DNA from: Moniliella sp. 'wahieum'
Lineage: Eukaryota
Assembly (NCBI GenBank): GCA_003971905.1
Contig: RSEE01000061.1
Span: 124,001 to 188,000 of the forward strand
Reading direction: 5' to 3'
DNA: 64,000 nt
Shown: in pieces, positions 2,343 to 62,862 of the stretch
How the letters are laid out: each line of letters opens with the position of its first letter
How positions within the stretch are numbered: the stretch's first letter is position 1
Program-made: the position numbers and the translations under genes
The notes under the pieces: generated by a model
Database searches by the model: none
Told to the model about the DNA's origin: nothing
Seen by the model: the letters and a program-made list of their open reading frames with translations, nothing else

Positions 2343-5300
2343 GCGGGCGGGAGATGGTGTGCGTGCTCGTCCCAACATGATGAAGCAGGTGGTAGGTCAA
2401 AAAGAACGCAGACGGTAACAGCCCAGCAAGAGTATATATCCTCGCCCTCGCTGAAGCTCGCCCGCGCGAAAATAAGTCCGTGTCTTGCTATCACCCCCTT
2501 CTCAGACCTCACGCCCTGCTCAGGCCTCAGGGCCTCTTCAGGCTGCAAGCTTCAGGGGGATGGAGGGCTGGAGGGGGCGATGGATGATCGATGACTGCCT
2601 AGTAGAGGCACAAGCCCTCACTAGCTCAGTAGTCACTGTGCGCACATTGAACCAGCTCTGGCACTAGCTTGCTTGGAGACCTGTGGGGTTGCCGGTTAGC
2701 GCTAGCGCCCATGCTGCCCAGGATGCGTGCAGCAGTTGCATGTGGCCACACTTCACGTGTCACAGAACACAGAGCAAATGGGAAACGAGAAAAAATCGCT
2801 TCTGCACACTTGCAAGCTGCACTACGCCAGCCTGAGCTCGTGTGAGACAATTCTGCCAGCCCCCGCACGGCGACAGCCTGAGCCCATCCCAACAGGGGAA
2901 GGTACACTGGTACTGGGCCCATGCCCAGCCGAATTATGCCGACGACGTTGTCCCGTCCGTGGCCCATTTGTCCGTGTGGGCGCAACGCCACAGAACGCCG
3001 TCGGGCAGGGTGCCAGCCAATTCCCCGCACGCGGGGAAAAGCACGGCGCCCACGTGCTGTGTCCCTGTGCCTAACGCCCCTGCCCATCAGGAAGAGGACG
3101 TGGGTGGCGTGGTATGTGGCGCTCCTTTTCTCCGTGTATTTTTTGGAGGGATCTCTCCTGGATCCCACGGACCACCTATCCAGTTTTGCAGGGAGCCGTG
3201 TGTCTATGCATGTCCAAAACCCTCTATGACATGTGACATGTGAGATCTAAGGCCTCCACCACCATCTCACCCGCTTATTCCCTGCTGAGCGACGACCGAC
3301 CTCCATTTGCATGTTGCCAAGAGCTCACTCACATTCGTCTCATGTGTTTTTTTGTGTGTGCTCCTCGTATTTCACTTCCCTCATACAGCTGTCGGGCTGG
3401 AAAAGCCACCTTTTTTTCCACCATTGCAGTGCAGCCGACTTCGGAGAAGTGTAGCAGCTGGCGCTGGGGAGGGGGTCAAGGCACGTGCGGCGTACCTGTG
3501 GACGGCATTGACTACTATTTTAGCACAAGAGACAGGTACCACTAGTCATTGGCGGACTGGCCAGCGGAGATTTCGAACGACGCCAGGCCAGGCGGGGCCT
3601 CGCCAGCTTCGCCCTTATATCGATTATATCGATTATCGATTATCCTGCGCCAGTATCTACTCTCGAAGGGAATCCCCGCGGCTAGATCCGAGAAAGGGGG
3701 CTCGAGAACATGGGTACTTGCATGGGAAAAGAGGTGGCAGATGAGAATTATTGACGAACTGTGGCTTCGGAACAAGGCGTGTCAGGGAATTGAGGCTCAG
3801 TACTCAGTATACTCAGTTCTGAGGCCTGAGGCCTGAGGCCGGATATGCCCCGGCAAGTTGATGGCATCTCACCTTCGGGGAGGACGCCTGTAATTATTGC
3901 CGCTATAGTGTACTTTGGAGGCAAGACTTTGCCACCTGCTTCGCTGCATGCAGCTTTGGACGGCAATAAGCTGGACGAACTGCTATCTGAGACTGACGCT
4001 TTCCTCCGTATGGCGTTTCGACGGACGGATGCGGGAGGATGAGGACCTCCCAGGGTAGGAAGGACGATTACCTTGACGCCCATGTGCATGAGAGCCTGCC
4101 CTTTCGGAGATTATGTGGGATCATGTGGCCGTCCACCATCTCGTACATTGATTGTGTGCCCTATTATGCGCGTATACTCCGCCGGACAATGAGGTCAATT
4201 CCTATCTTTTACCGCTTTGTTGCCTTCACTGTATGGCCGGTGTACATGGCGAGAGAGTGTTTGCGATGCAGTGTCAGCGCTGGGAGGATGTGGGAGATGA
4301 GTTAGTTGGAGCTACCCCAGAACCTCGGAGAAGAGTCGGTAGGAACTACTAATCAAGAACCTCAAGGGGGTGATCGCCGCAACGTATCCCAGCACGGTAG
4401 TGCGTTTAACTATACTTGTCTCTTCGGTGCCCGCGCCTTGTTGTGCTTTTCTACCTCATACCGAATCAGTTCCACATTGGTATACAGCTCCGTACCCACT
4501 CCTGTTCCCCCGCGCACAGAGCAGAGTGCTACCATTATGGCCTGTGGTGCCATCATTGGCGCATCCAAACTGGCACCCGAACCGAATCCAAGGCGGGGCG
4601 TTGCACGATGCTGGATGTGGGATTAGTTCATCTTTAGGCGTGTGTCCTCCATCCAGGACACCCATTAAATCTCAATGACTCGCGCTGAAGAGGAAAAAGG
4701 GGAAATGTGCGCGGAGGGGGATATAGGACCAAGTGCACGCTCTACCGGATAACGGAGCGGAGGCGTTTGTAGAATCAGAGAGACGGAAGTGGACAACACT
4801 CCTAACTACTCGGGAACTAATGTGGAGGGTCAAAAAGCAGCAACGTTTGTGGAACCGTAGGAGAAGAGACTGCATCCACTGTTGCAGCGAAAGGAATGCG
4901 ATAGGAACATCAAGCACCTGGGACTCACTCAAGAGTCTTTCTTCGCCCCATGTGGTCATGAGGACATTATGCGGGTATATTATGAGTCTCTCAATGGGAA
5001 AAAATGGTTCATCGCTGTGGCATATCTCTTCCGCGCTCTTTCGTATCCAATCTTGTTTGAAAGTGAATGACGGCAGCCAGAAAGACTTGGGCTCTGCTAC
5101 GGTTACTCCACTGGCGTTTCTCTTGATTACTGTTACTTTCAGCCATTGTCTCTCAATAGACCACCAACAGCTTGGCCAGTTACATATTGTTGCATAGGTC
5201 GTGGCCCATTGCCTGTCTAGTACATAAGAAAGACCTGCTAAGGGCCACACCTGGCCTTAGGACTCTTCCCTTGGTCTTGTCTTCAGCATTATATTGCAAC

Positions 5301-7538
5301 GGAATTAAACAGGAGAGGAGCAAAATCTGTAAAGCCCATTATGAGTAAGTGGCTCCGTTGTGGTCCTTGGGTGAACGAGCGGCTGGGATACATATGCGGT
5401 AAGGATATATAGCCAACAGATAACAAGATTGGATGTCAGTTAAAGCGTGCCACCCGATATACATATCTTATTGCCTCTGTTAGAATCTCATCGAGTTTTT
5501 TCAGCACATGCTGGCGTAACGTTGCTCTCGCATATCCGCTGTTACAAAGCCATATCTGAGACTTTTTTGAATCCGCACGAGAGGCATGATGACGTGCAAG
5601 AGGGCCACAATATGGGGGTGTAAGTACAAGTATATAACGCAAAGGGATAAGTTATCTTCGCTCCAGCTCAGGGATCATACATCGATAAGCCTGGACCGGA
5701 GGTGTGGGCGCATTTTGTGAATGAATCTGTGGTTGGTAGCCGAATTCACCGAGGTAAAAACGGCATGTATGTATATGAGGAACTGGAATGGTGTTTGTCT
5801 TGAGCTCACCACACCCCACGGACATCAATAAAGGTATAATGATATGCCTTTTAGGAAAAAGTACCACGGATTGGTCCCACTCAAACTCTTTTTCTTCTCC
5901 CGTCCTTGGTATGCATGGAGCGAAGCAATGAAGTTCTTTTGGGAAAAATTGAGGCACACTGGGAAAATGCATTAAGGGTGAGGCCTGAGGAGGCGACTTA
6001 GGAGGGAAATGCTGTCTTCGTCAAACATACCCCTCTCCCCCTCACATTCCCTCCGAAAGTTGTTGCACGCAACTGTGACACTCATAGCCGACTTGTTACG
6101 GTGACATATACCTCCATTGACCATTCAAGCTTCAAGCCTCAAGCATCTCATTCATGCGCGTGCTATTATACGCCACTGGTTGGAGACATACTTCTACTTT
6201 TTGCCCTCCGCACCGCGCAATGTGGGCACATGATGCTCTCCACCGCTTTGCGCGACTCGCATGTGTTACACGTCAAGCTTTCAAGTTGTCTCCTACTTTA
6301 GTTATACCTCCAATGGTTGCTTTTCTATACCATAAAACCTCTTCTGCCTTCTGCTTCTATTATTGTAGGGGGGAGAAAGAGGTCCGACGATGGAAGAGAT
6401 GGGTCACAATGTCTTCGGGAAGATGATCCACACCAACAAGAGCAGCCGACAGGGAAGGCCGGCAGGGTGGGTGACCCGTGGAACCTTTCGTGCACACCGC
6501 AAAACGATAAAAGAGTCAGGCCGTCAGGGAATAGAGCCAACGAGTATATGATCTCGATAGATATCAGATCTCACCCCGCGGTCACCATCGCCCAGCCGGA
6601 AGGGTTGGTACACGCCAGCGCCCCCGTGCTTTGGCGGCACAGGACCACTGTCAGGCTCCAATCCTGCAACCTAGCTCTGGTTTCGGCAGGCCTCCAAGAC
6701 AATTTCTGGCATGGGGGAAGGGTACGAGCAGGTCACAGGTGTCATCGATCATCACGCGTCATGCATCATGCAATGTCGCACATCACATTCACATGTCACA
6801 TCACAATGGCTCCTTCGGTTGTTGCCACATGCATTTCCCTATTGTTACGACAACTCTACATTCCCATCGGGCTGCGCGAGGGGATGGAAAAGCATGTTGC
6901 AGATCGAGTAGGACTAGATGGCTAGTGCTAGTAGTGGCTTTGTTGGCATGGGCAACGTCAACATCAACGTTCAGTACATCCAACGTTCCATAGAATCCAT
7001 GTTGTGTGCGTTTCATGGTTTGCTGTACAAATCCAGCCTCATACAACAGCAATTCACAACACCACGGAAGAATGCATCGCCAGCATCGCTTGGAGCCGGC
7101 AGCGTAAGGCGCGCCGACATATGCAGGTCATGCATAGTATGGTGCTCGCTCTATGGCCTTCTACTGGCCACATGGAGTCGGGCTGACACAAATGGAATAA
7201 GAAATTCGTTCCGCGTCATGACCCGACAAAAGCGCCAGCAACGAAGGACCTACAGGCAGAAGGTGTCGGGGAGTAAATGTGATGAAATAGCCGTGACGGC
7301 AGCGAGAGAGTAAAGAAAACACAAAATGGAGGTGGAAACAGGGAAGCAACATCGTTCAAGCAGAGTGACGATATAGGTATTGGTAGCAACCGGTCGCACA
7401 CGGTTACACGCGCAGCGCACGACAACCGTACCCGACCAGTATTGCATTGCTACTCGACGGCGAAGAGTGTAAAGGTGGGGTTTGGCACAAAGAACGTCTT
7501 CATCCCGTCAACAACGAAAGCGCGAAGGAGTGCTCCAC

Positions 7539-8430: not shown

Positions 8431-10964
8431 TGCGACGAACAGGAGAAGGAGGTGGTGGGGGGAGGGAAGACGAGAGGAAGCGCTGATGGGCGTAGAAAAA
8501 GGATTCTGATGGTGCACGGCGCCTGTGTGCCATGCTGCTCGCACGGCGGCAGCCGTTTGCGATGCGCGCGTCTTGGCACTGCGAATTGAGCCTGGGGCGG
8601 AGTGGTACTGAGTAAGTGAGCGCTGACGCGTGACACCGTCGCACGGACTGGGTTGGTGTGGGCGCAACGGACCAACCAGCCAGCGCTGGCGCAGCTGCGT
8701 GTGTCGGCCGGACACCGGCGCACGCGGAGAGACGCACGGCTCGGCAGTGGCCAGTGGCAAGAAGCCTGGGCGCTGGGCTGCAGTGCCTCGCGCGTGTGCC
8801 GCCCGGTGACCGGCACCATGCGTCGGCCTGTGGCAAGCAGTGGCGCAGAGGCACTCAGCCCACCGTACGTACTGCGTGCAACGCTCAATTCATCGATGCA
8901 GTCGAACGGTACGTTGAACGCACTTTGAGCGCGCAGATGCGGCCCGCAGTTTCCAACCTGGTCCAACTGCCGGTAGCAGCGCCACGGACATGCGAGCTGC
9001 GCAGGCAGACCTGTGACCAGTGACCGGTGACCTGGTGATGGTGACTGTGACATGAACATGACATGTCGGTGACGGCTACGACCATGGCGCATGGCTGCAC
9101 AAGTGCCCAGTGCCTAGTGCCTGGTGACTGGGTGACGGTGGGTATTCGTGACAGTGACCTGCAGACAATGGTGACATGCACTGTGACATGGTGACTTGTC
9201 CTGCGCCGGGACGCACCAGCGGAGGCAGTGCGCCAGCCTGCGCTGGCTGGCCAAACGCCGCGCAGCGCCTCCTCGGCTGTTGCACTGCGTGGTTCAGCGC
9301 TGCGGCGCTGAGGCTTAGCCGCACTGCTCGCATGGGGCTGCTAGCACAGTCTGCTGCAGTGCCGCGCCTGGCAGCAGCGGGGGAAGGGTGCGCAGGTGCC
9401 GCTGCCGGCGATCGCAGATCCCCTTTCGAACAGGCCATTGCATCCATGGCTGTATTCCAGGTGGTTCTTGGATGGTCGATGGCTCAGCCGCTGAGGCGCT
9501 GAGAGCCCATGCTCCATGGCCGATCTGAAATCTGATCGATGATCTGTGTCATCTGCGCAGCAAATCATTGCGTAGGAACATGGTAAACGATCTCCATCGT
9601 ATGCTTCGCATCAAAGTTTCGACTCGGGGGAAACCGGCCGATCCTCCTCCTTACCGGCTACCCCTCCTCTGGCCTTGCTCGGCTTACCGGGCACTGGGTA
9701 ATCAGCACCTGCTCAGCCTGCTGGTTGAACCTGCCGAACCTGCTGAGCGCGCCGAGCCTGCCTTCTTCGCTGTTCCTCTCCCAGGTCCCAGTCTCTCCTA
9801 GACCAGAGATGTACTTGGGCCGAAGATCATCGAGATCGTCATGCACATCGGCATCAGACATCAGTTGCACAGTGCCTCACACCCATCAGACATCACACCC
9901 CAGGGCCCTCAGCAGGAACAGTGCAGCCTTCATCGATCTGGAGGGTCAGCCGGTGGGTCCAGCGGGGCTCAGCGCGCGCCCAGCGCTGAGCCTCAGCAGC
10001 TCAGCAGGTTAAAATGTAAGCGCCTCATGCGCTCAGCTTCAAATTGTAGAAGACCAGAGAACAGGCACTTGACGGTGTATTGCATTGCACATGAGCTACA
10101 CAGAGGCCAGGGAATATTTCTGTCCTTCAGGACGGATTTTGCAAGGAATGAACCGGAAGGTTCCGGTTTTGGGCTCCCGACGTCACGCGTCACGCGTCAC
10201 TAGACACGAGTCACTACACCAGTGTGGCGTCACGCGTCACGCGTCACACACACTTCAAATGGCATGCATGTCATGCATCATGCATGTCATAGGTTCTGCC
10301 GGCTTCTTCATTCATTCAAGGGCTAGAGCTGGTTGCTTTTTGCAGTTTGCTTCCGCCTCCATCGATTTGCTAGGTTATGTATTTTGCTGTCGGCAGCCCA
10401 TGCACCGGGGCTTGCAGAAGTCCATCTTGTCCTCGCGCACACGATCACGGACAGGACATCCACCGTCCAATGTAGATGGGGGGATGCTTCAAGTCAACGT
10501 TCACGCGTTCACATTGAATAACACGTTGAACCAATAATGAGAGCTCACTGAACGTCTCGGCCTGAGCTTGAGGCCGTCGAACGTTGGTTGAACGTTGGTT
10601 GAACGTTGAACTCAACACGTTGAACCGGTTGAGGTCTCTGAGGTTCAGGCCTGAGTTCCTGAGAGGGCTCGCGCGTGCTCAACGTGTTGAACGTTCAACG
10701 CGGTATATACACTGCGCGTCTTGGAACTGGTCTCCCCGCGGGCCAACTGAAAGACGCCCCCCCTGCGCCCAGGTGCAGCTGCCAGTCTCTCTCTCTCGTG
10801 TATACAGTCCCACTTGCAATTTATTGTTTGTGTACAACCCACCAGCACCGCTACCTTCCAACAACGCCTCTGCAGACGAGAACCAAAACTTCATCGTTAC
10901 CTAGCACCTCCACTGCTTCACCCATCAAGCCCATAATAATAATTCATGGAGAGCCTTGGTGTTA

Positions 10965-13414: not shown

Positions 13415-14910
13415 GAGGAGGTGGTGGAGTGTGTTCGGAGGCGAGGCAAGTGTTGTCGGCCTTTTATGGCATTCACTGTTCATACGTTCATCGATGGTGG
13501 TCCTCTGTAGTACCTGCAGCGTTTTTCATCGTCCAGGACGTTCAGGCTCGCATTCGCCCCACCTCAGGCTTTGCTGGTTGAACGTTGAACGTTGAGTACT
13601 CCGACTGAGCGCCACACCAGTGTCCGCACCATCATGCATGCAACATGAGATCACACACCACCTTCGACGCTGTTCTGGAATGCTAGGGTTTCAGCGCACG
13701 GCCCTCAGGTGATCGGTGAGCGGTGGCAGCTGGGCAGAAGAGGTCTGCTCGCATCCCCCTGCTTGCCCATCTCGCTCTTCTGTATCTTCCCTCCAGGCAT
13801 TGCTTGAAGACTTGTGGCCCACCACTTACCTTCACGACTTGTCTGAAGACTGCTTTACAGCTGTTCCCGTAGGATAGATCCCCGAGTGCTTCCAACTGAA
13901 GTCGCACTTATAGCACAGCTATGCTCTACCTCTATACGGTAACCACATATCATTGACCGAACTTAAGGCTGGGACAAGAAACGCTCCGCCTAAACAGACC
14001 CGTTCATCCGGTATGCGTTGTTTGTTAGCGCTAACCCCGTTTAAGAAATCAGGGGAATCGCCAGGAAATCAGGACCCTTCTATACAGGGCGCGCCCCCCC
14101 CTCTCTGCCAACTTGACCGTTGATCTGGCAGTTAGTGCATCCATATTGCCTGGACCATTGCAATTGTGTACGCAAGTCTTAACCCGGCGCGCTCAACTTG
14201 GTCGGGGATGTGCACCTCCCTCCCTCCATGCACATAACCTTGATCAAACAGCGTTGGCGGTGGATTGGGGATGCAAGCAAACAAGATGTATGTCTTGCTC
14301 CCTTCGATCTATTCCTTCAAAGCCAAGAGCAAGAGGCACCTTTATCGCCCTCGGCGGTACTAACATTCGCATCATGCAATGGCCGTCTGTGGGAGTCTCA
14401 ATCGGTTTGACCGTATTGTACTGGCTGGCTCTTGCTCCATTTCCAATAATCCTTTCTGATCCGGGCAGGCAAAAGGTTAATGAGTCTCTACTGTTGTCAC
14501 TTTCCACTACGACACTACCACCATGACTGCGTTACCGACGGGCTGGTATGGTTCTGAACGCTCTTTTCACCTTGTCTGTCGAACGACAAGGCATTGCTCC
14601 TCACAACAGGAATTACCAACATGGTATGCTTTCCCTTGAAAGGTATCAATCGTACTGAGAGGGAAAAGCACTTTATAGTCGAGAACTATAAAGTGTGATA
14701 CTAGTAATGACGATCATGCATCCGACAATCGGGGGGAGAAAGTTTATACCCCCCTAGCATCTGGCCAAGACGGTGACGATCGTCAACATCACTTAGTGGG
14801 AAGACTGCCACTTTTGACCCATGCCATACCCAGTGTGCTGAGGATGGCAAGACGCCCCCTTTGACAGGAGCAGGGCAACCTACGGGAGTGTAGAGGACTA
14901 CTAGTTACTC

Positions 14911-19498: not shown

Positions 19499-21146
19499 AT
19501 CAGGATCGGAAGCTCCGGGCGGGACTTGGTCCAGACGTAAGGGGGCAGCGAGGAGGGTGGGCGCGCCTTGCTCCGACTCGTCAAGGTCAGAGGGGTAGGC
19601 GTCGGAAAGGGAGCGGGTGAAGCGGCGGTGGAGCGGCGCAGCTGGGTCGGGCGTGCTGGAGGGCGCTGTGGTGGGCGGGGGAGAGGGGCATGGACATGGG
19701 CATGGGCATGTGCACTGCGCATGTGGTGGTGGCCGCCAGTCCAGCCGCGGTGGCTCCGACGGGCGGCGCTTGCTTGGCTTGCTGGCCGCCTACTGCCTCT
19801 TCAGGCTTCAAGCTCTTGAAGCGTGATGCACATGGTGTGTGACATGCGATGTGTGATGCGCGCCACAAAAATCCTTGGATCATCGATCAAGTCACTCTGT
19901 ACCCCATGGGCACTTACCTCAGCGCCCCACAACCAAGGCCAACGTCCAACCCAGCCAACGTCCAACCCAGGCCGCCCAACCCCAAGCCGCCTCGCTTCGC
20001 CCCTTGAAGAGGAAGGGACAGAGGGGGGGGGAAGCATGCCTCATCTGCATCCTTGTTCTGTGCTGAGCCGATAGAGATGAAAGCAGTACCCGTCCCAGTG
20101 AAGGCGCGGCAGGTGGTCCGCCACTCACTGTGTATCATAATTAGGTGCCAAGCCCATGAATCATGTGTGTGTATCAGGATGGCCATAGCCCCGCCCTTTG
20201 GGACAGGCGTTTACTTCGTCTAAACTGGCCTCGATGCAAACTGCAACCGCAATGGCCACCAATCGATGTGACGCGGCTAGTGCTGAAGATTCAATTGCTG
20301 CCGTTGAGCGTGTGGGGCGTTGCCGACTCGTCCTATTTGGCATATGGTGTGACAGGGGGGGGCGCGTCGCACTTCGTTTCCTTCACACTGCGGCCCCCGC
20401 CCACCACACAGCGGGGGTGCCGGCTCCACGCATACTAATCACGTCCAAGCTGACTCCGCAATACAGCAACTGGGAAATTGGAGCAAAATCTTGTCCCACG
20501 TCGATGCACTCCTCGGCCTTACGATTGAGGTGGTGTTGCTGGGCTTGAGAAGGGCCTCGAAAGACTATGGTTAGAAGGATTAGGAAGAGGGTTTTTAGCG
20601 GCACAAAACGTACTTCTCAGTGACCACACAGCTGGTGTACGAGACATGCACGCTCTCGTTTATTAGAAGACGTCGCACCCTTCCCGGGTCACAGCGAGGG
20701 AGCGTGCAGACCGCTAGGATGTGGACAGAGAGACGGACCACGTGAGGCGCGTGAGGTGAGGGTGTCGAAGTGTTGGTTGCGTTGTGGCTCTGTCAAGTTA
20801 CCTCGAACGTGCATGTTGAACTTCAACTTTCAAGTTGATGCGCTTTGCAATTTGAATGGCCGATCTCTCAGAGCGGAACTGAGACGTGTACGTAATCCAG
20901 GTGCTGGCAGCGATCATGAAAATCATCGAAATCATCGCCCATGGGTTCATCAACCATCAATTCCCGGATCATGCATCAGGGGCGCGGCGTGAGGCTTGGG
21001 CTCGCTTGGGGCGGCAGGCAAGGCGGGGCACAGTGCATCCATTTCCCCCATCCTGGTTTTCACTTCCAGCCTCCTGCTCTGGCATCCAGACACCCGACGA
21101 CCACACCCACCCCCTCCACCCCGCCCTTCTTACCCTGGCCACCGTC

Positions 21147-21984: not shown

Positions 21985-22005
21985 GGAAGGGACGCCTTGT
22001 CGGGT

Positions 22006-26354: not shown

Positions 26355-29300
26355 TCGGGTTGGACAGGCAGTTGGCGAGGTGGTTCTAGCATTTCGCCAC
26401 ATCGGCACTGGCTTTGGCCTCTGAATCTGAGGCCCAGACTCTGACGTAACGAGGTTGTGTGCATTCAACTTGAACAATGAAACGTACAAAAGCATCAGAG
26501 GTGATGCGTGATTACAAGGTGATGTAAAATCAGGGCCGGCACCCCCAAAAATCATGATTGGTGCATCAAAAAGTGACTGCGCCCAGAATCGAACTGAGAA
26601 TAACAGACCTTGTGAAGCCGTATGATCGTGTTGCCACAATCTGTCGTGATACCTTTTCACCACGCAATCTTCTGCTGCGAACGGTCCCATAGCTCGTCCG
26701 GTCATATTTTCGATTCAAAACGACAACTACGACCGCTTTGAGATTTGATTCATCTCAGAGCTTGAGCCACAGCACTCTCGCGAAATGAAGCGAAATTGTT
26801 GGGACCATCCCCGCAGGCCCCAGCAGTGACCCAGCCCGTCCCTCCGCAAACTGTGTGCGCAACCGCAGGCGTAATCAGATACAGGGAGGATGCAGATGTT
26901 CCATCATACCGTCAGCAATAATCAATTTCCCTCGACCTCATCAACGTTCACGTTCAACGTTCAACTGAACAGTACGCACCCCTCCGCAAGTTGATGATAG
27001 TACTAGTAGGTTAGACCTTTTAGATCTTACTGACGAAAGAGTGGTGCCCACGGAATATCTCACACACACATCTGGATCTGTCACAACTCTTGCCCCGCAC
27101 GATAGTGCTGTGTCGCTACTATGCGGTCGCCAGCTCATTCCCTCTCTCTGCCCGCTTCTACGTGGCTCTGATATCTCCTCGTCTCCGCGTCCGGCTTAGA
27201 GCTACCTTGCAACCCTCCTCTGCACGTCACTGACGGGGGCTGAGGCGCTGAGGGCGCTGAGGCCGGAGGTCTCGTCTCGTCTGTACCCACACAGAAAAGA
27301 TAGATCCCATGCACACACTCTGTCTCAATCCATCTCCTCCGAACATTAACCGTAAACGTTAAACGTTAAAGGTTGAACCGCCGAGCTAGTGAGCGCTGAG
27401 CGCGCGCTGAGCAGACCTGGACTGAGCACCGCTCTATCCTTCTCTAGTATACACACAAAGTACTAAGTCTTTCGGGCAGTACTATTACAAGTAGTAACTA
27501 GTAACTACTTACCGGAGAAACGCGGTAACCGGTAACCAGTCAAGCTACAAGAGCTTCAAGCTTCGGGGCTTCAACCTATGGTTCGACGTTCAAGCAAGCC
27601 TCAGTCCTCAGAGACCTCACATCCTCAGAGACCTCTCAAGCCTCAATCAAGCCTCAGGCCTCAGGCTTCAGGGCCTCAGGGTGTCCTCTCTGGTCTGAGT
27701 TCCTAAGCCAGCCTCTGAGCTCTTGAAGCTGAAGGACATCTTAGGCATTGAACGCAATCGAAACCGGGTATATCTTTTTAGGCAGTACCTGGCGTCTGGG
27801 ATGGTCGATGGACTGCTGTGTGTCCATCAGATATGGCTCCCATTTGGACTCCTCGCCTCTGGTCCCTAGCCTGCCTTGGATTTAGCGTTATGCGTGACGA
27901 CGCCCCCCCGCCCTGCCGGGTTCCTAAGAGCGGCTTACGCGCTTACGTGGCACCCATTACGCGTTGATGAGTACACGCAGCAGTGGCAAACGCCTGGCTA
28001 CTACCGCAGACTATACCAACGCTGCGAACACCCTGGTTACATTGTTTCAGAAATCGCGGGGCAATGCGGGGATGAAACACAGAGCCAATGCGGCGGGTGT
28101 TCGACCAGGCCCTGCCGGCGACCAGGCTTTACCGGTACCTGCTCGTCCCTGCTCGCCCGGGCCTACCCTTCTCTACCCCCTACCCCCCCCCCAACCGCCG
28201 CAGCGGGGCCGCGGGATCGCCGGAGGCTGAGCGCCGAGGGGCGCTTGCTCAGATGATCGAGGAGCCTCATTGGCTGAGCCTCAAGCCTCAGTACCTCCGT
28301 GCCTCACCTCAGCGCCTCAGCGCTAAGATCGCTGCGAGGCCCTGCTGTGTGTTTTAACGCGGCGGGATGGCCGGGCCGGCGGTGGTGCACGCATGCACAG
28401 CAGCGCCCTCCCTGGCCGCCATTGGCGCCTCGGCGCCTCAACGCCGCAACTCTCATCAACTCCTGATCGCCTCATCGCCGCATCGCCTCTCTCCCTCACC
28501 GGCCACGCCCTCCGTATGACTATCGTCATGACCACAGCCAAATGTCCACTTGCTATTAGGATGGTGAAGTCGTGAGATATGAGCGCGTGGTTAGATCAGC
28601 CTTCGTGCCTCGGCTCCCCTGGGCCGCCGTCTGAGTTGGCTGGTGCAAGCCCGCCGTAGCACGAGCAGGCACTGCACCATTGTCGGAGACAGGTGTACGT
28701 ACATGGCCAGCTCGTACGCATGTGCTTTTGTGCAACGCGCACCCCCACACCTCCCCTCTCACATGCCACGTGTCACATGTCACACCCCCGCGCGGCCCCA
28801 TCTTAACCCGTCGTCTGCTGTCCAGCGGGTGCCTCGGCGGCCATAAAATGTTGGGAGGTTCCTGTATATCGCACACAGGCCCCCTGCCGCGTCGTCTGGG
28901 AGCGGTGGCCGATCATCGATCATCGACCATGGTGCCGATGATCGAAGAGGACCGGGGACCCCACAGCCGTCACCGCGTCACCATTATAGTTGCAACAGGA
29001 TGCATGATGCATGATATCGATATGCAATTCCTCCGGCCCCACGGCATCCTATCTTGTTTGGAGCATCTGCATTGTTTACGTGGTGGACCTCTTGCCTCTC
29101 CTGCAGATGGATGGAAGAGCCTAGCATCTCTATCGTCATAGAACCGGTGCGAGCTTCAAAGGCGCAAAGGCGGGAATATAGTCAGTTGGTCCTCCTTGGG
29201 TGGAAGGGGGTGCCAGGGGGCGCCAAGAAGGCGCGGCGGGCAGCGCGTTTCAGATGGAGTTCTAGCGGCGAACGCGGCTCCGCATCTTACTCTGGCCCGT

Positions 29301-30700
29301 AGGCAGGGCGCCAGTGGAGCTTAGAGGCCGGAGGGAAGGCGGGAGGTGTGTGTGCGGAAACGAGGCGACGTGGGGGCATGTGGGGAAAGGGGGTGCAAGG
29401 CAGAGTGTGTGAACACCAAGGGGCCTTGCAATCATCGATCCGCTGTTGTTCTGTGCAAGTGACTTGAGGCAGTGACATGTGGCATGTGAGGTGAATATAA
29501 TGCTCCCGGGGGGCTTACTGGACTCATATCGACCCTACGATTGCGGTGGCGGCGCCTGTCCCCACGAGCTGCTACCCCGCGGGGGTTCCTGTTTGAACTC
29601 GTCGTCCGCCGATGGGCTGGGATCTGCTGGCACTGGCTACTGCTGGGGCCCCGTGCGGATATAGGATGTGCATGGTTTGCGTGATGGTTTGGGGCCGGGG
29701 TGATCGATCTATGGCCTCGATGATTGCTACTCTTCGCCGATCGATGAGTTCGATGGTGCCCTGTGCTGCGTGATGCATGATGCGGGGGCAGGGGCTGGGG
29801 CTGGGACTGGGGCGGCCGGGACCCGCTGTGGCATGCATGACAGGCTGTAGCCTGCGGTGGCACTGCTGTGGCAGGCTGTGGCCCCTCTGGAGAGCGCAGA
29901 AGGCACGCGGTCTGGCGCAATCTGTGAGTGCGGGGATTAGGCCTGGCCTTAGGCCTTAGGGCTTAGGGAGGGGGCGATTGAGCCAGGAGGGTGGCGTGGG
30001 GTGGCGATGGCTACGATGGAGAGAGGAACTGCTAGGAACCAGCGTTGGACCCGTGGGGGCCTTTAGCCGGGCCGGACACGAGGTGGCAAACGGGCAGTAG
30101 CGCACGAGAGTGGAGTGATTCATGGTGACTTGGCGCATCGCCCTGCCTACCGCCTACGTCCCCTAACGACAGCGGGGGGTGCGGCGTGTGCTGGGGCTGC
30201 TGCCGACCGGGTCGATGGTCGATGGTCGATGATCGATGATCGATGATCCCGGCCCCCGCGTCGGCGCGCGTATCGATTCTGCCGCGTTGGCCCTGGCGGG
30301 GCATGGGGCACGGGGCGTGTGTGCTGAGCGCGGGAGCTGGGCTGGGGCAGCGTCGCGTGCGAGGCGGAAGAGAGCGCTATCCTGCGCTTCGCCCCGCACG
30401 AGTGGGTCAGACTGGTGCCAGGCGGCGGATGTGTTGGTGCGAGACAGCCGCCGTGCGCCGGCGGATGCATGAGGCACGATGCATGATGCGCGTCCAAGCG
30501 GGCGCCGCTAGCACGACGGCCAGGATGCCTGCCTCGTCGCCGCCGGCGAGTCGTGTGCTGCGTGCTGCTGCGGCGGACCGCGTCCTCCGTCGGCGTCCTC
30601 CACGCCCCCGAGGCTGTGTCTGCCCAATCCCACAGTTCGCCCGCCTCGGCCCGACGGCGCATGCGGGCAGGCCGCTGCGGAGATGCGTCGGCCGCAGGCA

Positions 30701-35544: not shown

Positions 35545-37144
35545 CTTCTCAGTCTCCGTGTGACCCTCTACACTCGACTCTTAAGCGCCAGGGAGTTGGT
35601 ACCTTTTTTGTCGGGAGGTGGGGCGCGGGGGTGGGGTGTGAACGTTGAACGTTAAACGGTGAACGGGTGAACGTTGAACCGGGTCATAAGTGAACGTGGC
35701 AAACCAATGTGCCATCTTTCATGCACTCCCCCAGCTAACACGATCTCTTGGCTCGTATGTGATACCAGCCGCCTGACGTCACATTCACATGGCAACACGT
35801 CGCGGTGCATTTCCTGGGGTCGATCTTCAAGCTCTTCAAGCTTCCAGCTTCGACCTGCAACCTCACTAATCTAATTTGTACACACTCGGAGCAGGCTGCA
35901 GACGCGAAAGTCCCATTGTCGATAGGCCGGCCGGCCAGTAACCCACCACAAACCCAAGCGAAAAAGATTCGGAATGATTAATTAGGCGTTGGACGATCAA
36001 TCTACCCTGCGCCCTGTTCTACCTCCCTGGCCTGCTGCCCCCGTCCCCTCTCCCCGTCCTGTGCTACGCGTGCGACATTAAGGATGTATGTACGTGGAGA
36101 CGACGAGTCCGGAGGCGCACCAAGAATGCTGAGCATCAGAGATTGAGAGGACGGTTTGCCTTCGTAGTCATAAAAAAAACTCGGAGATTAAGAGGTGCCA
36201 GTTGAAGCTGTGGAGTGTAGTAGCGCGTGTGTGGAGCGGAAGAGGCGAAGAGGCGGAGAGGCGCGCACGCTCGCTTTGGCTGAACCTGAACGTTCAGCTG
36301 AACCAATGTTTTTGAGTTGACCGACCCACGACGTCATCATGACGCATGCCGTGCGGCCAGTGTCGTGAAGCCAGCCTGGGGCCTGCGGACAGTAGAAGTA
36401 TGGAATCCTGATTGCTCTTAGAGCTTTGCGGTTCCAGAGCTTTCTCGATCCTCAAACTTCGATCCCCCGAAGATGAAATCGGTGATGTCGATCATGATCG
36501 ATGGATGAGATCTCCAACCAGATCGAGCAGGTTTTATTGTAATGCCCACACACCACAGCTGCTGCTTTTGGCCGCAGGCAGGCTTGCATGGGCGACAAGG
36601 AAATGTGGATGGGGGGAGTGAAGCCCAACAACCCGACTGATGGCATTCTTTGTGAGAGAAGGCGAGTGGGAGGACTGTGGAGGGACAGACAGACAGAAAG
36701 GCACCAGGTCGTATGTCGGAGAGGTTTTTTAATCTGAGAACCTCTTCTGCTGATGGAGAAAGGGCCCATGTGTGCATCGCGATCGAATAGCGACAATACT
36801 GAGAAACGTGTTCGACGCTGCGTTGTGGTGGCGGCTCGTGCCATGTCGATCCCGAGACGCCTGCACAGAGCTGCGTACGCAGCTGCTTCACACACAGGAT
36901 GGCCCTTCTGATCTCGGGTCCTCTGTTGTGCCTCGATGAGACCGAAACGAGACGATGACGGGGATGCCTGGTCTTTATGACCACATCTAGTAGGTGTGAA
37001 GTAAACGAGGCCTTGGATGCACTGACGTCATGGCCATCCAACACCGAAACGGAGCGGATGGCGATGCGGTCGATTGTGTGGGTGTGCTTCCGGATCGAAC
37101 ACGGGCAGGCGGTGAGGCGGGTGGCAACGCACAGGTTCTTTGTG

Positions 37145-42526: not shown

Positions 42527-43550
42527 CACCAGCACCCGCCGCTGCTCCGACGCAGCCCATGTTGCGCAGCGTGGCATGGCGCGTGTGGGATCGGCCGCTG
42601 CAGCACCCTGCCTCCGCCAGCCAGCGCACGCGCCCCGCACGGCGCCAGTGTTGCCCCGCGCACCCCATTCCGATTTGTTGGGAGCCAGCCCCCCAACTTG
42701 GCTTCGTCTCGTTGGGGCTCGGGCTTCGGCCTTTCCCGCTGCAACTTTCAACCGCACGCGCCAGTCCGCTTAGTCCGCTTTCCTGCGTCCGCATACGCGG
42801 TGCGCGCCACTCAAAGTGCACTCCCCCACGCGCCCCCCACCCGCGCTTCCGTTCCTCGCCTCCCCTGCTGCTGCTCCCCCCCCCACGAATCGGGCGCAAG
42901 CTATGCGGCTACCAGCGGCCAACACACGCGTCCAAGTAAGCCACTGACGTCAGTCGTCCCGTAGAGACACACCTAGTACTCCTTCCGAGTCCTCCCACTA
43001 CCAAGGCGCAGAATTGCTTCGCCCCTTTGCCCCGCACGCGCGCTGATTCGCCGCTCCCTCGCTCCACGGCCGTGCGGGCCGCCATTTCCGCACACACCGC
43101 AATGGGGAATCAAAACGTGTCATGCATCGTCCCATCCACCACCTTCCGGCGCTCATCTTGAATGCACAACGGCCCTCTATTATAACCTTCCGAGTCACCT
43201 TTGATTTGGTCTATCCCTCTCCAGCCCCAAAAGACAGACGCGCTGATGCACTGCGATCACACAGTAACTCCCTCGAGCAGAACCCTTCGCTTCAGATGGT
43301 AGTGCTTGTGAAAGAAGACTTGTGGCTCGTCACTAGTCATTAGCAGGACGGGGTTGGCTCCTACAGCTTCACTGTGTTGGGACCCGGGTGCCCCCCTGCA
43401 TGGGCCAAGGCGCCTTATCGATTGTCGTCCTTTGCCCCTTACTTGATCTCTGAAGCCTCCACGTGGATCCTCCGGTTGCTGTCCCTCTGGTCTATGCACC
43501 ACATCGTCGCCAATGTAGGCAGGGCGGTGGAGACGATATCCCCTTGATTC

Positions 43551-44997: not shown

Positions 44998-47157
44998 ATG
45001 GCCGAAGCGTACGGCCGCCGGCCACGCACTACGTTCCCCCTCCGCCCCCCCCCGCCGCCCCTCGTCTACCCTACCCGCCCGCCTCCAGGCCCAACGAGCC
45101 CATGGCATCATACCGTCCCCATCCCCGCCTCCCCCCACACCCTTCCCCTTCTCCGTCGCAGCCCTTGCCGCAGCCTCAGGCCCAGCCCCAGCGGCCGCCG
45201 CCACCCCTCACCACCACCATCACCACCACCACCACCACCACCCCTTCCCACCCGCACATGCACAGCGAGGGCATGCCCCGGGTTCCGCCTAATGAGGTAC
45301 CCACTCCCTACTCCCAGCTTCCGCCGCCCAACTACCCCGACTACCTCTCGTCTCAGCTGCCTGCCTGGTCCGTACCCGCCAGCAACTCTGCTTCCAACAC
45401 AGTCCCCGGCCCCGACCCAATGTATCGCCCCCTCCCCATAGAGGGCATGTCGGCACCTACGCCGATGGGGGCACATCTCGTCTCGGTCCCCATGCCCTCC
45501 GGCTTGCGCCACCCTTCCAAGGCCCTGTTGCCTCTGCCTCTGCTGCTGCCGTTCCTGCAACGACACAGACCCCTCAGGTGCACCTTCCCCGGCCCCGAAC
45601 CGGAATCGGTCGAGCAAGCCGCGCGGCCGGAGTGGGCCTGCCAAGGCCCCGCGCCGCCAAGAAGCCGAGGAACGCGAGCCACGCCGCCGCCGCACGAAGG
45701 GAACAGGTGGAAGAGCCTGCGGGTGAGTCGCGTTTCGCTGCTTCCAACGCCGCGCTGCCTTCGGTCACGGGCGAGAGCAAGAAGGACAAGAAACGAAGGG
45801 AGGTACTGGAACGGATCGAGCGGCAGTACCGTGAATCGTGCGAAAATCGCGAACTGTATGTCCTATCATGGTTTGGGGATACGGGAAACAGAAATTGTGT
45901 AACATTGCGCAACTTGGTCAACTGACGTTCCTATTAGGTTTGCCACGGAGCTCCTGAAAAAAACGGGGAGACCCATACGCGGTTAATGGAGACCCCAACG
46001 TCCGAACGGGAATATCAGTTGGCAGCGGCGCAGTTGACAGTGGAGCGCGACACGTTGCTCACTAAGGTCCAATTGTTCCACCAGTATCTGCTGAAGCAGG
46101 CCCACGCTCGCTTTGAGGCCGACCTGGCGCGGTGGGACGAGGAGGCACAACAGGCCCACCAGCGGATCCGGGACAAGCTCCTCTTTCGGTCGAGCAAAAA
46201 CGAGGGCAGCTCAAGGCGGAAAAGGAGAATGGGGAGGCTGTTTTGAGTACGTATCTTGACTGATCAACGTTCAACGTGGGGAGACGGGACCGCTGACAAT
46301 GGATCGTTCGACCACAGCCGAATCGCTTATGGAGCAACAACGGCAATCCACTCGCAAATTGCGCAACAAACATTCTGGTCGTCCGACACGTGGCTCCTTG
46401 TTGGACGACGATCTGGAAGCGCCCTCGTCCAGCGCGCCAACACGGGGGGACCCTCAGGGTACCCAGGGCGGGAACGCAGGACATCACGGTCTAACCTCTG
46501 GCACCGGAGCATTGGGCCTCAACTTGTCTGGCAGCCTGGTGCAGAGCATGGGCTTTTCCCCCTCGGACTTGTTGGTGCTCACATCTGCAGGTCGCTTGGG
46601 CATCGAGTTTGCACCGCCTCAGTCCGAGGTGAGAGGAACCAAACGCCGCGCAGCGGAGGAGGACGAGTCGATCTCGGATCTGCTTGCAGGGCCGCTGCAT
46701 CTGCGCCTTGACCCTGCCACCGTGCTCGATCTGCTCGGCTTAGGGGGGAGCGCGACCGCTCCCTTTGGTGGCGGCGGGATTATGACCGGTCTTGTTGATG
46801 GGGGCGCAGGGAGCGAACAGGGCGTGGTAATTGTTGGCCCGGGTGCCAACAAGGGCAGGAAAAAGGCACGGCAGGGTCCCGGGGCTGCAGCTGCTGCTGC
46901 TGCTGCGGCGGCGGCTACGGCAAGTGCGCTAGGGGATGTGGAGAGTCCTGTGAGCCACTTGGCGGCTGGCACGGCTGTCCCAGCATCTGTTTTGTCAGCC
47001 ACCATTGGGGCTGGACCAGCAGGCCGGCTCAAGTGGGACCAGGGCAAGTCCCTCCAAGCCCTTACGCGCGGCTGCCCCCGCCGAGGTAGAGGCGGATCTG
47101 GCGCGCATCCGCAAAGCGCTTGGCGCTGGCAACAAGTCACCCGCCAAGCCCATCTGA
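44998..47157 (+). CDS. Sds3-like (Sin3/Rpd3L-associated) protein with Pro/His-rich N-terminus, frameshifted
   Basis: ESKKDKKRREVLERIER..ENRE, intron about 45857-45937, LTVERDTLL..FHQY..RFEAD..QRIRDKLL coiled coil, STRKLRNK, C-terminal EVEADLARIR. The family assignment is by pattern only. Confidence 0.6.
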
Positions 47158-54597: not shown

Positions 54598-55935
54598 GTG
54601 GGGGTGGGAGATGAGGGCGATGGTGGTGGTGGCGGCGACGGCGCGGAGAAGAGGGGGTGTATGCTAAGCACCCTGTTTTCCCGGTGGGTGCCAGGGGAGA
54701 TTGCGGCGGCGTGGAGCCCAGAGCGGCGCCTGACGCGCTGGACGTTTCATCAAGCTTTGGAGGGCAGCCTGAGGTAAGGCGAGCGGATAGCTAAGCGAAG
54801 CGCTCTGGAGATGCACTCGCACGCAGTCGGAGCCATCCGCCAGCAATCAGCTGCTCAGCCTGAGGCTGCTGAGCCTCAGCAGCACGCCGGGCTGCCTCGC
54901 TGCCTCGCGGCCTGCGGGGCGCGCGGGTGGAGCAACACTGCTGCCGTGCGCTGCCAGGCGACGCGACGCCTCCGCCTTGGGGCCAGTCCTCCGACGCGGC
55001 GCTCAGTGCCCCCCTGCGCCTGTCTGCGCCCCCACGCCAAGAAAGCGAACCGCACATGATGCATGATGCATGACGCCACACGTCACGTGTGACAGATGGG
55101 ACCAGCCGCAACCCTAGCCTGACTACTCCGTCACACATCCTCTGGGCCAAGGTGACATGGCGACAATTGAATCACTGATTAATGATGCCTGCTGGGACCA
55201 ACGCAGGCCAGCGCACGAACACCTCTGCCAATAGCCCTCGGGGGGAACTCGCTTTTTCCGTCGCCGTTCCCAGGAGAAGAAGGATGCGTCAGACGTCAGA
55301 TCTTAGATGCCACTCTTTCTTCACCTCCGGCTTGACCGCAGGCCTCATGACCTCATGGCCTCATGCGCCTCACGCACATGCACCGCATGCACCTCATGCA
55401 GATGATCATGCTGCGCTATACAAGTGTGCACGTAATTCTTATTTGGAGAGTTCTGCACCATCCAGCCCGCCTCTCACAGATCGCATCGATCATCGACCAT
55501 CGCAGCCTCCATCCCCTTTCCATCTGGCATGCCCTCCACGTACAGATGTCGATGAATCATCTGCCTCAAAACGAAGGCTCACTAGTCACTGTAGTCACTG
55601 TTCTTACGCCCACTGTAAGACCCCTGCCGCCGCTCATTCAAATAGAAATCGTTTATTACCCTTCTACAGGCAAAAACGCAAGAGACAAGATATTGTTGTG
55701 GTAATGCAAAACTACTGCAACTACTGCTGAGAAAGAAGAGTAAAGAATGAAAACGCAGGCCTGTTCGTGAAGTGCATACGGTAAGATGGGGTTGAAGTTG
55801 TTTGAAGGAATTTCGGAAAGCGAGATGAATGAAGATGGGCATCCAAAAAGTAGTTGGCAGAGGTGATGACAGTTGAAAGTGATTATAAAGTATCCCAACC
55901 AAAAATGGAAAAGCTCTCATATAGGGGTTAGAGAG

Positions 55936-56771: not shown

Positions 56772-57940
56772 TGCGACTGGGCGGAGAGGTGCAGATGATG
56801 GCGAAGTGGGAAAGGTAGGCGGCGAACGTGGGGCAGATAGATGGTGGTGAAGAGTTGTAGCTCACAGTAGTGGGCTTGGGCCCTGACGAGCTTGTACAAC
56901 GCCGGCTTGAAGCTTGGAGGTTGCACACGTAGGTTGAACCCGTCGAGTCTCGAGATCTGAGATCTGAGTTTCTGAGAGCTTGAGAGCTTGAGCTCGAATC
57001 AAATTACTCACATTAATCAAGCTTAATCAAGTCAAGCTCAAGCTTCCATCCTGCGCACTCAGTAACTCAGTACTCGGGAGACCCCAGAACTCGGTCGTCG
57101 GCCTCAACGTACCGGGTATTTCAGCGAGAACCTACTCAGGACTCTTAGATTTTAGATCGTATGGGCACCTGCACGCTTTCGCGCGGCAAAGCACACGTCG
57201 AGCCCAGACAACACGCGAAGCCAGTATGGTGCCGCGGCCAACCGGTTAGGTCACCGGTCAGCAGGTCAGTACGTCAGTGCTCTGTACTCAGTGCCGGGTG
57301 GTACTGGCCGCACGACCGGTGACTGTGCCTTAGACCCTGCCCCACGTGGCCGCAGCGGGTGCAGAGGACGCACGGGACAGTGTGTGTGTGCCCCGCATTT
57401 GCCACACCCTGGCACACCCTGGCCACGACCCCCTGTCGCTCGTCGATCTTGCTCCGTGTTGCCCCGCTGAGCGGACCAGTGTGCTGATGCGCCCAGGCGC
57501 CCTTGCCACTCCACTTGCTGGACGCGTTGCTTCGGCGGGGCACCCGGGGCCGTATGAGGCCGTAGGCTGTAGGCCGCACCAGTGCCGTGCCAGGCCGCGC
57601 CTTGGACCGACAGCAGTCCAGCCAGTCCAGCCTAGCACACTGACTCTGTGCGGCCAACGCACTGCCCCCTGTCCTTCTGCGCTACGTACTCCGCACCACC
57701 CTGTCCAATTAACCGCTCAAACCGTCTTACATAACGCGTAACGCATAACGCGCGCGCTGTCTGCACCTGACTAGCTTGCCTCGCCAGGCATGCCCGCCAC
57801 CCCAATTCCGCCCATCTACTTCCGCTGGCTCGACCCTGGGCGCGTGCACTGACGTCACGATGTGGGCGAGGGTGCGAGACCTGCGTGGCTAGTCTGGCCA
57901 GGACTTTTGGCACCACCGCTGTTAGATCACACCACCAACG

Positions 57941-58634: not shown

Positions 58635-59324
58635 ACGGCTACCCTTTGGGGAATCTCCAAATGGTGGACTGGACAATGTCTGATGTGTTTTTGGCTGCTT
58701 CTGTGCCACATCACATCTCATTTGAAGTGCACATGTAGGTGTCGACCGCGAGGGAGAGTGATCACTAGGTCACTAGCTATTCAATGCCCCTAGAGCAGGG
58801 TGGAGATGGCCAACAACTTCACCTGAGCCAAATCGATCGAGCACTGATGGTATCATATATCAACTCCGATCGCTTGTTTTCCGGTACGCAATTGTGGTCT
58901 CCTTTTTTGCCCCATTCCCTCAGTGCGTGGTCCACCACCCCGTTCCTTATCCTCCGAACGCCCCTGGTTCCCATCACTTGGTAGTCTGTACACCTAGCCA
59001 TCCTCCCTCGCCGCGTCCCGTCCTCTTCCATGTCAGTAGCGGCTCATGTGTACTGGGAATGCTGTGAATTCAGAAAGCTCCGCGCTGCGCCATTTTGGCG
59101 CATGGGGTGGGTGCATGGGATGGTGTCTGGGGGGCTAACCCGCTAATCGGTAAACTGACTGACGTGATATTGATGTGTGGCCGAGTAGCAGCCACCGTTT
59201 GGGGCAATGTGATGCGTGATGCATGATGGGTTGCATGGGGGCAGGATCGAGGCGCTTGGGCTGGCACAGATATCGACGTCAGCGCACCTCGTTTACCCAC
59301 CATCACCGAAACCAGCTCTACCCC

Positions 59325-61816: not shown

Positions 61817-62862
61817 CTGGATACTATGGATCTAGAAGATGTTTATCGCCCCGTTCGTTGGCTCGGGAAAAAACTTTGAGCCTATATTTGATGTAGGTCG
61901 AAAGGAGGAGCCCACGGTTCTGTTGGGAGGATCTATTGAGAAGATGAATGGATCAGTGGGTGGCGCCCTTCCTAATCAGCGATCGGGTCTCCATTTGCAT
62001 CCAACACGTAGGCGGCGATCTTCGCCATGTAGTTTTTTCTTAAGGAGCAACGAGGCCACAAGATGCACGTGACATTTAGAGGTCGCGTACTGTTGCACGC
62101 CTTTCACAACAATCTGCATGGCGGATCATGGGGAACCAAACCTCGTCGCGGGCATTGTCTCCTGCCAGGCTGAGAAGCAAGCGGATTGTGTCAATATACT
62201 CCACACTCGTATACTCAGTTGCGCACTTTTTCCGTCAAGAAGGTGATATGAGTAAACCAGCAACTCTTGCTGCTTTGCCATTCAGCTGAAGGGAGAGAGA
62301 AGAACGGTTTAGCGACAGCTGGTTAGTGCTGCCTTCAGTTCTTCTTGAAAAAGCTCCGTGACGTGGGGGAAATCAGCCTACGAGAGCCACACAGGTTTTC
62401 TTCATCTCAACGTCTCGGCCATCTCCTTTTACAATCCTGTTGGTAATCGTGGCGTGCAAGGCGGGTATTGACGTCATCCACGTCTTCAAGACGCTTGCGC
62501 ATGAAGTTGGTAACCGAAAAGTCAGCCAGGTTGGACGTGGCGGGGAGACATAGTAGGAAGAGAGGAGAGGTGGAAGTTATATCAGACTGACTCTCGCCAG
62601 AGCACAGATGACGTCGATCGTTCGGATGTGCATCATCGATCATCGATGATTTCGACGATCCCTTGCAAGTTTCAACTGCAATGTGCCCGCTTGCCCGATC
62701 TCTCCACTTGGGCCCTGGCAGCCCCGACGCTGGTCTGGCGGGCATGGTCTCTCATTCCGCCTCGGGCATTCCGCCAGTCTGGCATCGTTTGCTCTCCATC
62801 TGCCGACAACATGCCTGCCCTTGCCTCCCTCCCCGCCGCCCACGCCACGCACCACCACTCCT

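Follow-up and report, generated by a model that had tools for sequence, protein, structure and literature searches.

The stretch of DNA analysed here (hereafter the window) comprises 64,000 bp of contig RSEE01000061.1 from Moniliella sp. 'wahieum' (positions 124,001 to 188,000 of the forward strand). With a G+C content of ~58%, the window carries a fungal gene set: elongation factor 3 (EF3) with a chromo domain, an SPT23/MGA2-type factor, NTR2, mitofilin, a protein kinase, a 14-3-3 protein and a UCH peptidase. The non-coding DNA contains many short arrays of 7-bp units, each made of a T-N-A triplet and a 4-bp palindrome, which an earlier sequence-only reading had described as interchangeable 6-bp palindromes chained in a 7-bp register. 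In what follows, N stands for any base, S for G or C and W for A or T, y'x' and b'a' are the reverse complements of xy and ab, respectively, and +7, +8 and so on give the net gain in base pairs. Confident coding DNA, delimited with a model of codon usage built on the frames with Pfam support, makes up 35.3% of the window, whereas open frames of at least 150 codons cover 69.3% of it. Dinucleotide-preserving shuffles served as controls (50 for the lag test and 100 for the test of palindromic N4).

The autocorrelation of TNA triplets, followed over lags 1 to 30, exceeded a z of 2.2 only at lag 7, where 186 TNA-TNA pairs were counted against 121.9 ± 10.9 in the shuffles (z 5.9). The four bases between the triplets were palindromic in 76 of these 186 TNA-N4-TNA stretches, compared with 7.25 ± 2.9 (maximum 18) in the shuffled windows, so that both the 7-bp register and the excess of palindromic cores proposed by the sequence-only reading are borne out. 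Hexamers of the form A-xyy'x'-T (n = 268) gave 21 pairs at lag 7 and 0 to 5 at the other lags between 1 and 35, and palindromic hexamers overall showed no excess in the window (1041 against 64000/64 = 1000 expected). In a period scan, period 7 was the most prominent once the multiples of three, which stem from coding DNA, had been set aside, and Tandem Repeats Finder reported many short period-7 arrays. Period-7 runs with at least five repeated bases numbered 162 against 56 in shuffles, and those with at least seven 42 against 3.9. The unit was a TNA triplet plus a 4-bp palindrome in 47 of 163 period-7 runs (0.65 of 55 in shuffles), a rule obeyed by 20 of the 23 runs with at least eight repeated bases. 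At the level of clusters, 13 out of 16 possible cores occur; all twelve hexamers named in the sequence-only reading occur in perfect events, and ATATAT is the thirteenth. Its weakest claim, that interchangeable cores are chained in register, holds in part: 6 of 18 hexamer chains mix cores, while 12 repeat a single core.

Close inspection of the 76 palindromic pairs reveals that the triplet is directly repeated and not inverted, since the middle base is the same on both sides in 62 of them (CC 29, GG 25, AA 5, TT 3) and truly palindromic arrangements, TGA...TCA or TCA...TGA, account for only 4. The core is also related to its surroundings: in the 62 pairs with identical middle bases, it matches the downstream flank only in 22, the upstream flank only in 13, both in 16 and neither in 11, and thus at least one flank in 51, where chance would give 1/16 per side. 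The minimal unit, TNAxy followed by the reverse complement of xy and by TNAxy again, was found 67 times against ~0.3 in shuffles (0.23-0.45 depending on the shuffle set), with C as middle base in 28 instances, G in 28, A in 6 and T in 5. Put differently, among the 89 TNAxy repeats separated by a 2-nt filler, the filler is the reverse complement of xy in 67, compared with 0.33 in shuffles. When any 5-mer was allowed, the pattern gave 109 cases, and the 42 without a TNA anchor proved, on inspection of the listing by eye, to be mostly other registers of the TNA arrays; no event anchored on ANT, CNG or GNC was found in the window. By a hand count, 11 of the 13 rule-conforming runs with exactly five repeated bases begin at TNAxy or y'x'TNA, which represent two of the seven possible registers. 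The middle base is G or C (TSA) in 35 of 41 cluster units, the available non-coding sites being 2575 with S and 950 with W in that position.

One event therefore recurs, in which ab-TNA-xy becomes ab-TNA-xy-y'x'-TNA-xy or, in the mirror form, ab-TNA-b'a'-ab-TNA-xy. In the product, the target is directly repeated and the junction is closed by two nucleotides copied from the flank in inverted orientation, a net gain of 7 bp; both mirror forms are present, the 22 downstream-only and 13 upstream-only matches making 35 one-sided events. The core is not picked from a repertoire but built from the dinucleotide that adjoins the triplet. This explains the use of 13 of the 16 cores, as well as the persistence of palindromy and register when the core changes. 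Should a terminal unit of an array change by mutation, as may have happened from TCACG to TCATG at 6752-6765, the next event would build a new palindrome there. Some mixed-core neighbours break the duplication rule, for instance AGGCCT at 3250, and these may be due to chance.

The 67 perfect events group into 35 clusters. Single +7 events are found at 2520..2531 (TCAGG-CC-TCAGG), 5979..5990 (TGAGG-CC-TGAGG), 6125..6136 (TCAAG-CT-TCAAG), 9021..9032 (TGACC-GG-TGACC), 9533..9544 (TGATC-GA-TGATC), 29003..29014 and 29771..29782 (both TGATGCA), 55579..55590 (TCACTAG), 57732..57743 (TAACGCG) and 62633..62644 (TCATCGA), in the mirror form at 2583..2594 (GATGA-TC-GATGA), and further at 19878..19889, 34182..34193, 46264..46275 and 59217..59228, whereas the one at 58851..58862 has the sole A/T-only core, TATA. 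Pairs are formed by TCAACGT (26952..26965), TCAGGCC (27652..27665), TCACATG (28771..28784), TCATCGA (28911..28924) and TTAGGCC (29947..29960), together with TAACTAG and TAACCGG, whose middle base is A (27493..27537). Arrays are those of TGACATG (3227..3243, 2.4 units, followed by GATC and GGCC cores outside the rule), TTATCGA (3631..3644, middle base T), TGAACGT (13577..13595, 2.7 units), TGATCGA (30228..30248, three units) and TGATGCA (55055..55073, 2.7 units), and two TCACGCG arrays lie beside one of TCATGCA at 10181..10282. A mixed-core chain at 6742..6800 contains TCGA, CGCG, TGCA and CATG. Composite loci combine a TCAGTAC event, a +9-like GTATAC junction and a threefold TGAGGCC array (3797..3838), or contain a +8 junction flanked by TGAACGT events (35639..35679). 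The cluster positions given by the sequence-only reading are covered by the 35 clusters and by the +8 and +9 loci described below with two exceptions, 44.8k, which has only a 20-bp repeat and no event conforming to the rule, and 36.3k, where we found a single TGA-ACGT-TCA.

Two arrays have a further peculiarity. The middle-base-T array around the TTAGGCC pair (TTAGGCC-TTAGGCC-TTAGGGC-TTAGGG, 29937-29967) drifts into telomere-like TTAGGG, which is probably a coincidence. The array at 42450-42526 consists of 9.6 perfect copies of the 8-mer ATCACTCG and is of the G-TGA-TC-GA type; it is probably a +8 junction that was expanded by slippage. On the upstream side, it lies just beyond the confident coding segments of a minus-strand gene, the downstream parts of which encode SPT23/MGA2 and TIG domains.

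The junctions that depart from the +7 form indicate how long the duplicated block is. With a 2-nt inverted filler, direct repeats of 5 nt dominate (67 instances against 0.38 in shuffles), accompanied by repeats of 4 nt (12 against a shuffle mean of 1.6), 6 nt (19 instances at 12 loci against 0), 7 nt (4 against 0), 8 nt (1 against 0.03) and 9 nt (2 against 0). In junctions of the form TNAxy-y'x'-N-TNAxy, N is the base that precedes the first T at 11 of 13 loci (p = 1e-5), and in those of the form TNAxy-y'-NN-TNAxy, NN are the two preceding bases at 8 of 17 loci (p = 3e-6). Since bases 5' of the triplet are co-duplicated in these +8 and +9 forms, the block can extend over two bases on each side of TNA, which fits 7 bp centred on the middle base. 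Forms with +8 occur at 6515..6528 (GTCAGG-CC-GTCAGG), 9490..9503, 13478..13491, 27933..27947 (GCTTACG-C-GCTTACG), 28307..28321, 28968..28982, 55351..55365 and 57057..57071 (a 7-nt repeat with one inverted nucleotide), next to a TGAGATC event at 56956..56992 and together with a single +7 event, TCACCGG, at 57249..57278. The +9 forms lie at 20741..20756 (a 7-nt direct repeat with two inverted nucleotides), 20921..20936 (AATCATC-GA-AATCATC) and 35825..35840 (CTTCAAG-CT-CTTCAAG), and GC-TGA-GG shows both +8 and +9 events at 27239..27262.

We then sorted the junctions by the position at which the other copy starts within the block, counting non-palindromic targets only (some loci are shared between cells). 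With a 2-nt filler, offsets of 2, 1, 0 and 3 nt were counted at 27, 11, 3 and 10 loci, respectively (0.27, 0.17, 0.03 and 1.63 in shuffles), and with a 1-nt filler the same offsets give 7, 11, 7 and 6 loci. A plain 7-bp duplication without filler was found at 2 loci only. Inverted dinucleotides from both sides are present in the junctions at 27393-27412, a +11 junction that follows a TAAACGT array and a TGAGCGC event (27353..27412), and at 57014-31, a +10 junction (57014..57031, AATCAAG-CTT-AATCAAG). The palindromes are of the even form (67 against 0.23 in shuffles), and the events are symmetric between the strands, with 28 TGA and 28 TCA events on the given strand.

The sequence-only reading had judged the arrays by eye to be rare in coding sequences, and indeed none of the 35 clusters lies within confident coding DNA (binomial p = 2.5e-7), while 15 of 35 fall in open frames of at least 150 codons (p = 0.001). 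Because a 7-bp insertion shifts the reading frame, this absence says nothing about function. The copies are also graded in their preservation: 67 perfect events are accompanied by 107 that differ by one change and 266 that differ by two, compared with 0.45, 11.75 and 153.65 in shuffles, which leaves an excess of ~95 and ~110 events with one and two changes, respectively. Decayed copies thus outnumber perfect ones, as neutral scars would show, and the gradation indicates a long-running process whose products decay.

A direct view of one insertion is provided by two paralogous non-coding segments of ~130 nt and ~75% identity, each in a spacer (33650-33740 and 43367-43465), which represent the only usable paralogue pair among the repeats inside the window. 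They differ by a 7-nt gap, the first reading ...GGCGCC-TGATC-ACCC and the second ...GGCGCC-TTATC-GATTGTC-GTCC. The seven inserted nucleotides are GA, the reverse complement of TC, and a copied TTATC that has since changed at one base, so that the second segment bears a copy-specific insertion, TTATC + GA + TTGTC (43415..43426, plus strand), and the first the empty site (33692-33705). An old small element and a shared regulatory block were both considered as identities for the segments themselves.

Taken together, these data make it very probable that the 7-base repeats are insertion scars. As to their source, we lean on balance towards a cut-and-paste element that repeatedly inserted and was excised, duplicating 7 bp of target and leaving hairpins on the flanks. 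Such an element would insert with a target duplication NN-TNA-NN centred on TNA, and its excision would leave a perfect hairpin on each flank, which a host nuclease of the Pso2/Artemis type would then open, mostly 2 nt 3' of the tip. The opened duplexes would end in ...ab-TNA and begin with TNA-xy..., bearing the 4-nt palindromic 3' overhangs xyy'x' and b'a'ab. If end joining linked either overhang to the recessed 5' end opposite and the second overhang was removed as a flap, the +7 product or its mirror would result. Other opening positions would give the rarer +6, +8, +9, +10 and +11 forms, the +8 and +9 forms arising from opening at +1 or at the tip. After a first event, the new TNA would sit in a fully palindromic heptamer (ab = y'x'), at which the two overhangs would be identical and cohesive, so that each further cycle would add exactly 7 bp. 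A point mutation in the terminal unit followed by a new event would produce a neighbouring unit with a different core, and existing arrays are probably extended further by replication slippage.

The proposed opening step has close precedents. Artemis:DNA-PKcs is described as opening hairpins on the 3' side of the tip, at a distance of 1 to 4 nt and primarily at +2, with 4-nt overhangs dominant (PMC2175297), and yeast Pso2 as cutting 2 nt from the apex and repairing the hairpins of Ac/Ds excision (PMC3299998). The offsets of 2, 1, 0 and 3 nt observed here fit an opening at +1 to +4, mostly at +2, and in this respect the junctions resemble those of V(D)J and Pso2 hairpin opening (PMC2175297, PMC3299998). 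Further likenesses are shared with the footprints of flank-hairpin excision, known from Ac/Ds and other hAT elements, MULE and Transib, and with the coding joints of V(D)J recombination: the empty site keeps the duplicated target and the junction carries a short inverted copy of the flank (PMC5873905, PMC5499845), such as the P nucleotides described for Ac/Ds footprints in Candida, yeast and plants (PMC5873905). In contrast to those footprints, which come from experimental revertants, the scars described here are genome-wide, fixed, of high density and able to build arrays, one junction type dominates, and the target is strictly T-N-A with a 7-bp duplication. The chemistry is already known, whereas the target, the scale and the consequence are new.

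Several observations weigh against an excised element of this kind. No Pfam transposase was found in the 162 open frames of at least 130 amino acids in the window (16 + 146), and inverted ends flanked by TNA-type duplications (12-nt pairs with at least 10 matches, next to duplications of 7, 5 or 3 bp with TNA or any of 8 or 9 bp) were not above chance in the window. The sole inverted-end match with a 7/9-bp duplication, at 19806/27554, spans housekeeping genes and was rejected, and the motif CTCACTG, tried as an element end, was not enriched in the window (4 matches against 12.5 expected). A density of 35 perfect-event clusters in 64 kb is, to our knowledge, far above that of the scars of any known transposon. 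Hairpin opening at one end is not cleanly independent of that at the other, as the 7+1 class (7 loci) exceeds what a simple product of the frequencies would give, and the 11-bp repeat at 10585-10604, which ends in a TGAACGT pair (10585..10611), misfits the model. A/T-only cores account for only 1 of 41 cluster-unit combinations, though 622 of the 3525 available sites have an A/T-only xy, and we have no explanation for this deficit. Finally, a 5-bp duplication with one hairpin accounts equally well for the majority class. Several simpler schemes were tried and rejected: a fold-back copy, which needs TGA...TCA (4 of 76); the retention of two bases from each element end, which leaves the flank matches unexplained; a plain staggered cut with fill-in, which has 2 loci in its favour; and a 3-bp duplication with hairpins, which on paper predicts TSATSA.

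The alternative that survives best, doubtful as we consider it, dispenses with the inserted element altogether. A host enzyme, either a domesticated transposase or another TNA-specific nuclease, would break TNA sites with a 7-nt stagger, and after fill-in of both ends one of them would pass through a hairpin or snap-back before joining. The strict T-N-A specificity of the events, their very high density and a window devoid of an element all speak for such an enzyme. Yet fill-in should mostly give plain 7-bp duplications, which were found at 2 loci against 27 in the main class, and a hairpin on the target-bearing end would require two copies of the target, which an element supplies and a single cut cannot. 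We know of no TNA-specific enzyme that breaks and repairs host DNA in this manner.

Less probable still is an element of the Transib/RAG type with a 5-bp duplication, TNAxy, in which only the flank distal to TNA would contribute two P nucleotides. The 67 cases of five direct and two inverted bases are what this model predicts, the even palindromes are those that a perfect hairpin gives, and Transib and RAG do form flank hairpins, as stated in PMC5499845. However, the +8 and +9 junctions duplicate the bases 5' of TNA along with the triplet much more often than chance would allow, which argues for a block of 7 bp; a target with TNA at its edge would be asymmetric although TGA and TCA events are equally frequent; and a junction with P nucleotides to either side of a 5-bp duplication, which this model leads one to expect, was seen once.

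An origin without any site-specific enzyme, through ordinary replication slippage or template switching at hairpin-prone quasi-palindromes, appears very unlikely. Perfect-copy arrays such as that of 9.6 copies exist, the units are self-complementary, and gain or loss of units by slippage is to be expected with certainty once an array is present; but slippage cannot create a 2-nt inverted filler at single-copy sites, as the 35 one-sided events would demand, it has no need for T-N-A and should not spare ANT, CNG and GNC, and a fold-back copy would yield the TGA...TCA arrangement that is all but missing from the palindromic pairs. Assignment to the class of slippage microsatellites was rejected on the same one-sided first events and on the adherence of the long period-7 runs to the TNA-plus-palindrome rule. 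The sequence-only reading had offered, as one of two explanations, a template-switching process that perfects palindromes; a mutational process in non-coding DNA is indeed what we find, but the palindrome arises at once, when two nucleotides of the flank are copied in inverted orientation, and is not perfected from an existing one.

Its other explanation, a factor that polymerises on TGA-N4-TCA half-sites, has to be given up, and the broader idea of functional binding-site arrays kept by selection for a regulatory or chromatin protein is, in our estimation, remote. The clusters do lie in non-coding DNA beside genes and the palindromic units resemble the sites of dimeric factors; nevertheless, the 13 cores are each set by the flank (51 of 62), leaving no conserved recognition core, the TGA...TCA type is rare, decayed copies outnumber perfect ones and the frameshift alone keeps 7-bp insertions out of coding DNA. 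An artefact of assembly or sequencing is scarcely credible, given that the pattern is confined to non-coding DNA, decays gradually and includes a copy-specific instance in an old paralogue pair.

Among described elements, some basidiomycete lineages come closest in the length of the duplication. PMC12730594 describes hAT7, from rusts, and Kyakuja, from mushrooms, as having 7-bp duplications, the latter with CA..TG termini, no inverted ends and a chemistry given there as unknown. Both share with the scars the 7-bp duplication deduced for the latter, and hosts in the Basidiomycota, and hAT enzymes leave flank hairpins; they are described from rusts and mushrooms and not from Moniliella (PMC12730594), and the window contains no copy. 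By analogy they may be regarded as candidate agents, matched on duplication length. A classical hAT element was rejected, as the duplication is 7 bp and not 8, and the hallmark odd junction of that group, centred on the complement of the element-adjacent base (PMC5873905), is at background, with 0 to 3 instances where shuffles give 0.27 to 1.43. The T-N-A target triplet is shared by elements of the PIF/Harbinger and Tourist kind, for example mPing, but according to PMC4561436 they make a 3-bp duplication, TTA/TAA in 45 of 46 insertions, and excise precisely without a footprint; they were rejected because the gain here is 7 bp, TSA is used in 35 of 41 units and footprints are left. As for Transib and RAG, the even palindromes are those of a perfect hairpin and the main class fits 5+2, but the co-duplicated 5' bases of the +8 and +9 classes argue for a duplication of 7 bp.

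A scan of metagenomes for three TSAACGT units returned at least 124 stretches, of which 122 loci (588,610 bases) were analysed. No relative with the multi-core pattern was detected among these 122 loci, only unrelated heptamer satellites: cores other than ACGT occurred at 0.117 per kb, which equals the shuffle level of the window, as opposed to 0.95 per kb in the window itself. The satellites have the period of 7 and even the same unit as one window array, for instance the (CAACGTT)n satellites of 65 copies in L010 (877-1344) and 43 copies in L004 (2820-3122), but they are single long arrays with no other cores above chance in their contigs. In the literature searched, which left out most subscription journals, we found no description of genome-wide TNA-anchored heptamer scars, nor of the heptamer tracts of Ustilago that the sequence-only reading had mentioned.

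Other features of the window deserve mention. At its left edge (248-446) there is a C-rich satellite of CCATC-type units with periods of 14 and 19 and ~14 copies, unrelated to the TNA rule. The segment 4001-6000 has a G+C content of 0.49, compared with 0.53-0.65 elsewhere, and is without any confident coding segment. Imperfect repeats of 18, 21 and 36 bp, rich in GAC, GAG and GCA (7666-7924), lie partly within segments called as coding by the codon model and probably encode an acidic low-complexity stretch. At 22006-22086 and 26573-26669, ARAGORN reported a tRNA-Ser(CGA) and another tRNA-like gene, for which it gave an odd anticodon of four bases; the latter gene may be an intron-containing tRNA read under bacterial settings.

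The regular 7-bp grammar of this non-coding DNA is not evidence for a DNA-binding code. It is possible, and we put this forward tentatively, that an element of low copy number but high activity, which duplicates 7 bp centred on TNA, or else an enzyme descended from such an element, has long cycled in and out of gene-flanking DNA, with its scars as a major source of non-coding sequence. If this is true, the finding points to an undescribed element or domesticated enzyme with an unusual target, and the scars would create palindromic heptamers de novo, as self-extending sites and seeds of tandem repeats beside genes, which would be a new way for short tandem repeats and palindromic promoter motifs to originate without slippage. 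The junctions would furthermore form a natural record of hairpin opening in a fungus, from thousands of which the preference of a Pso2-like nuclease could be read, and a single transposon-and-repair reaction would have written a visible share of the non-coding DNA in Moniliella sp. 'wahieum'.

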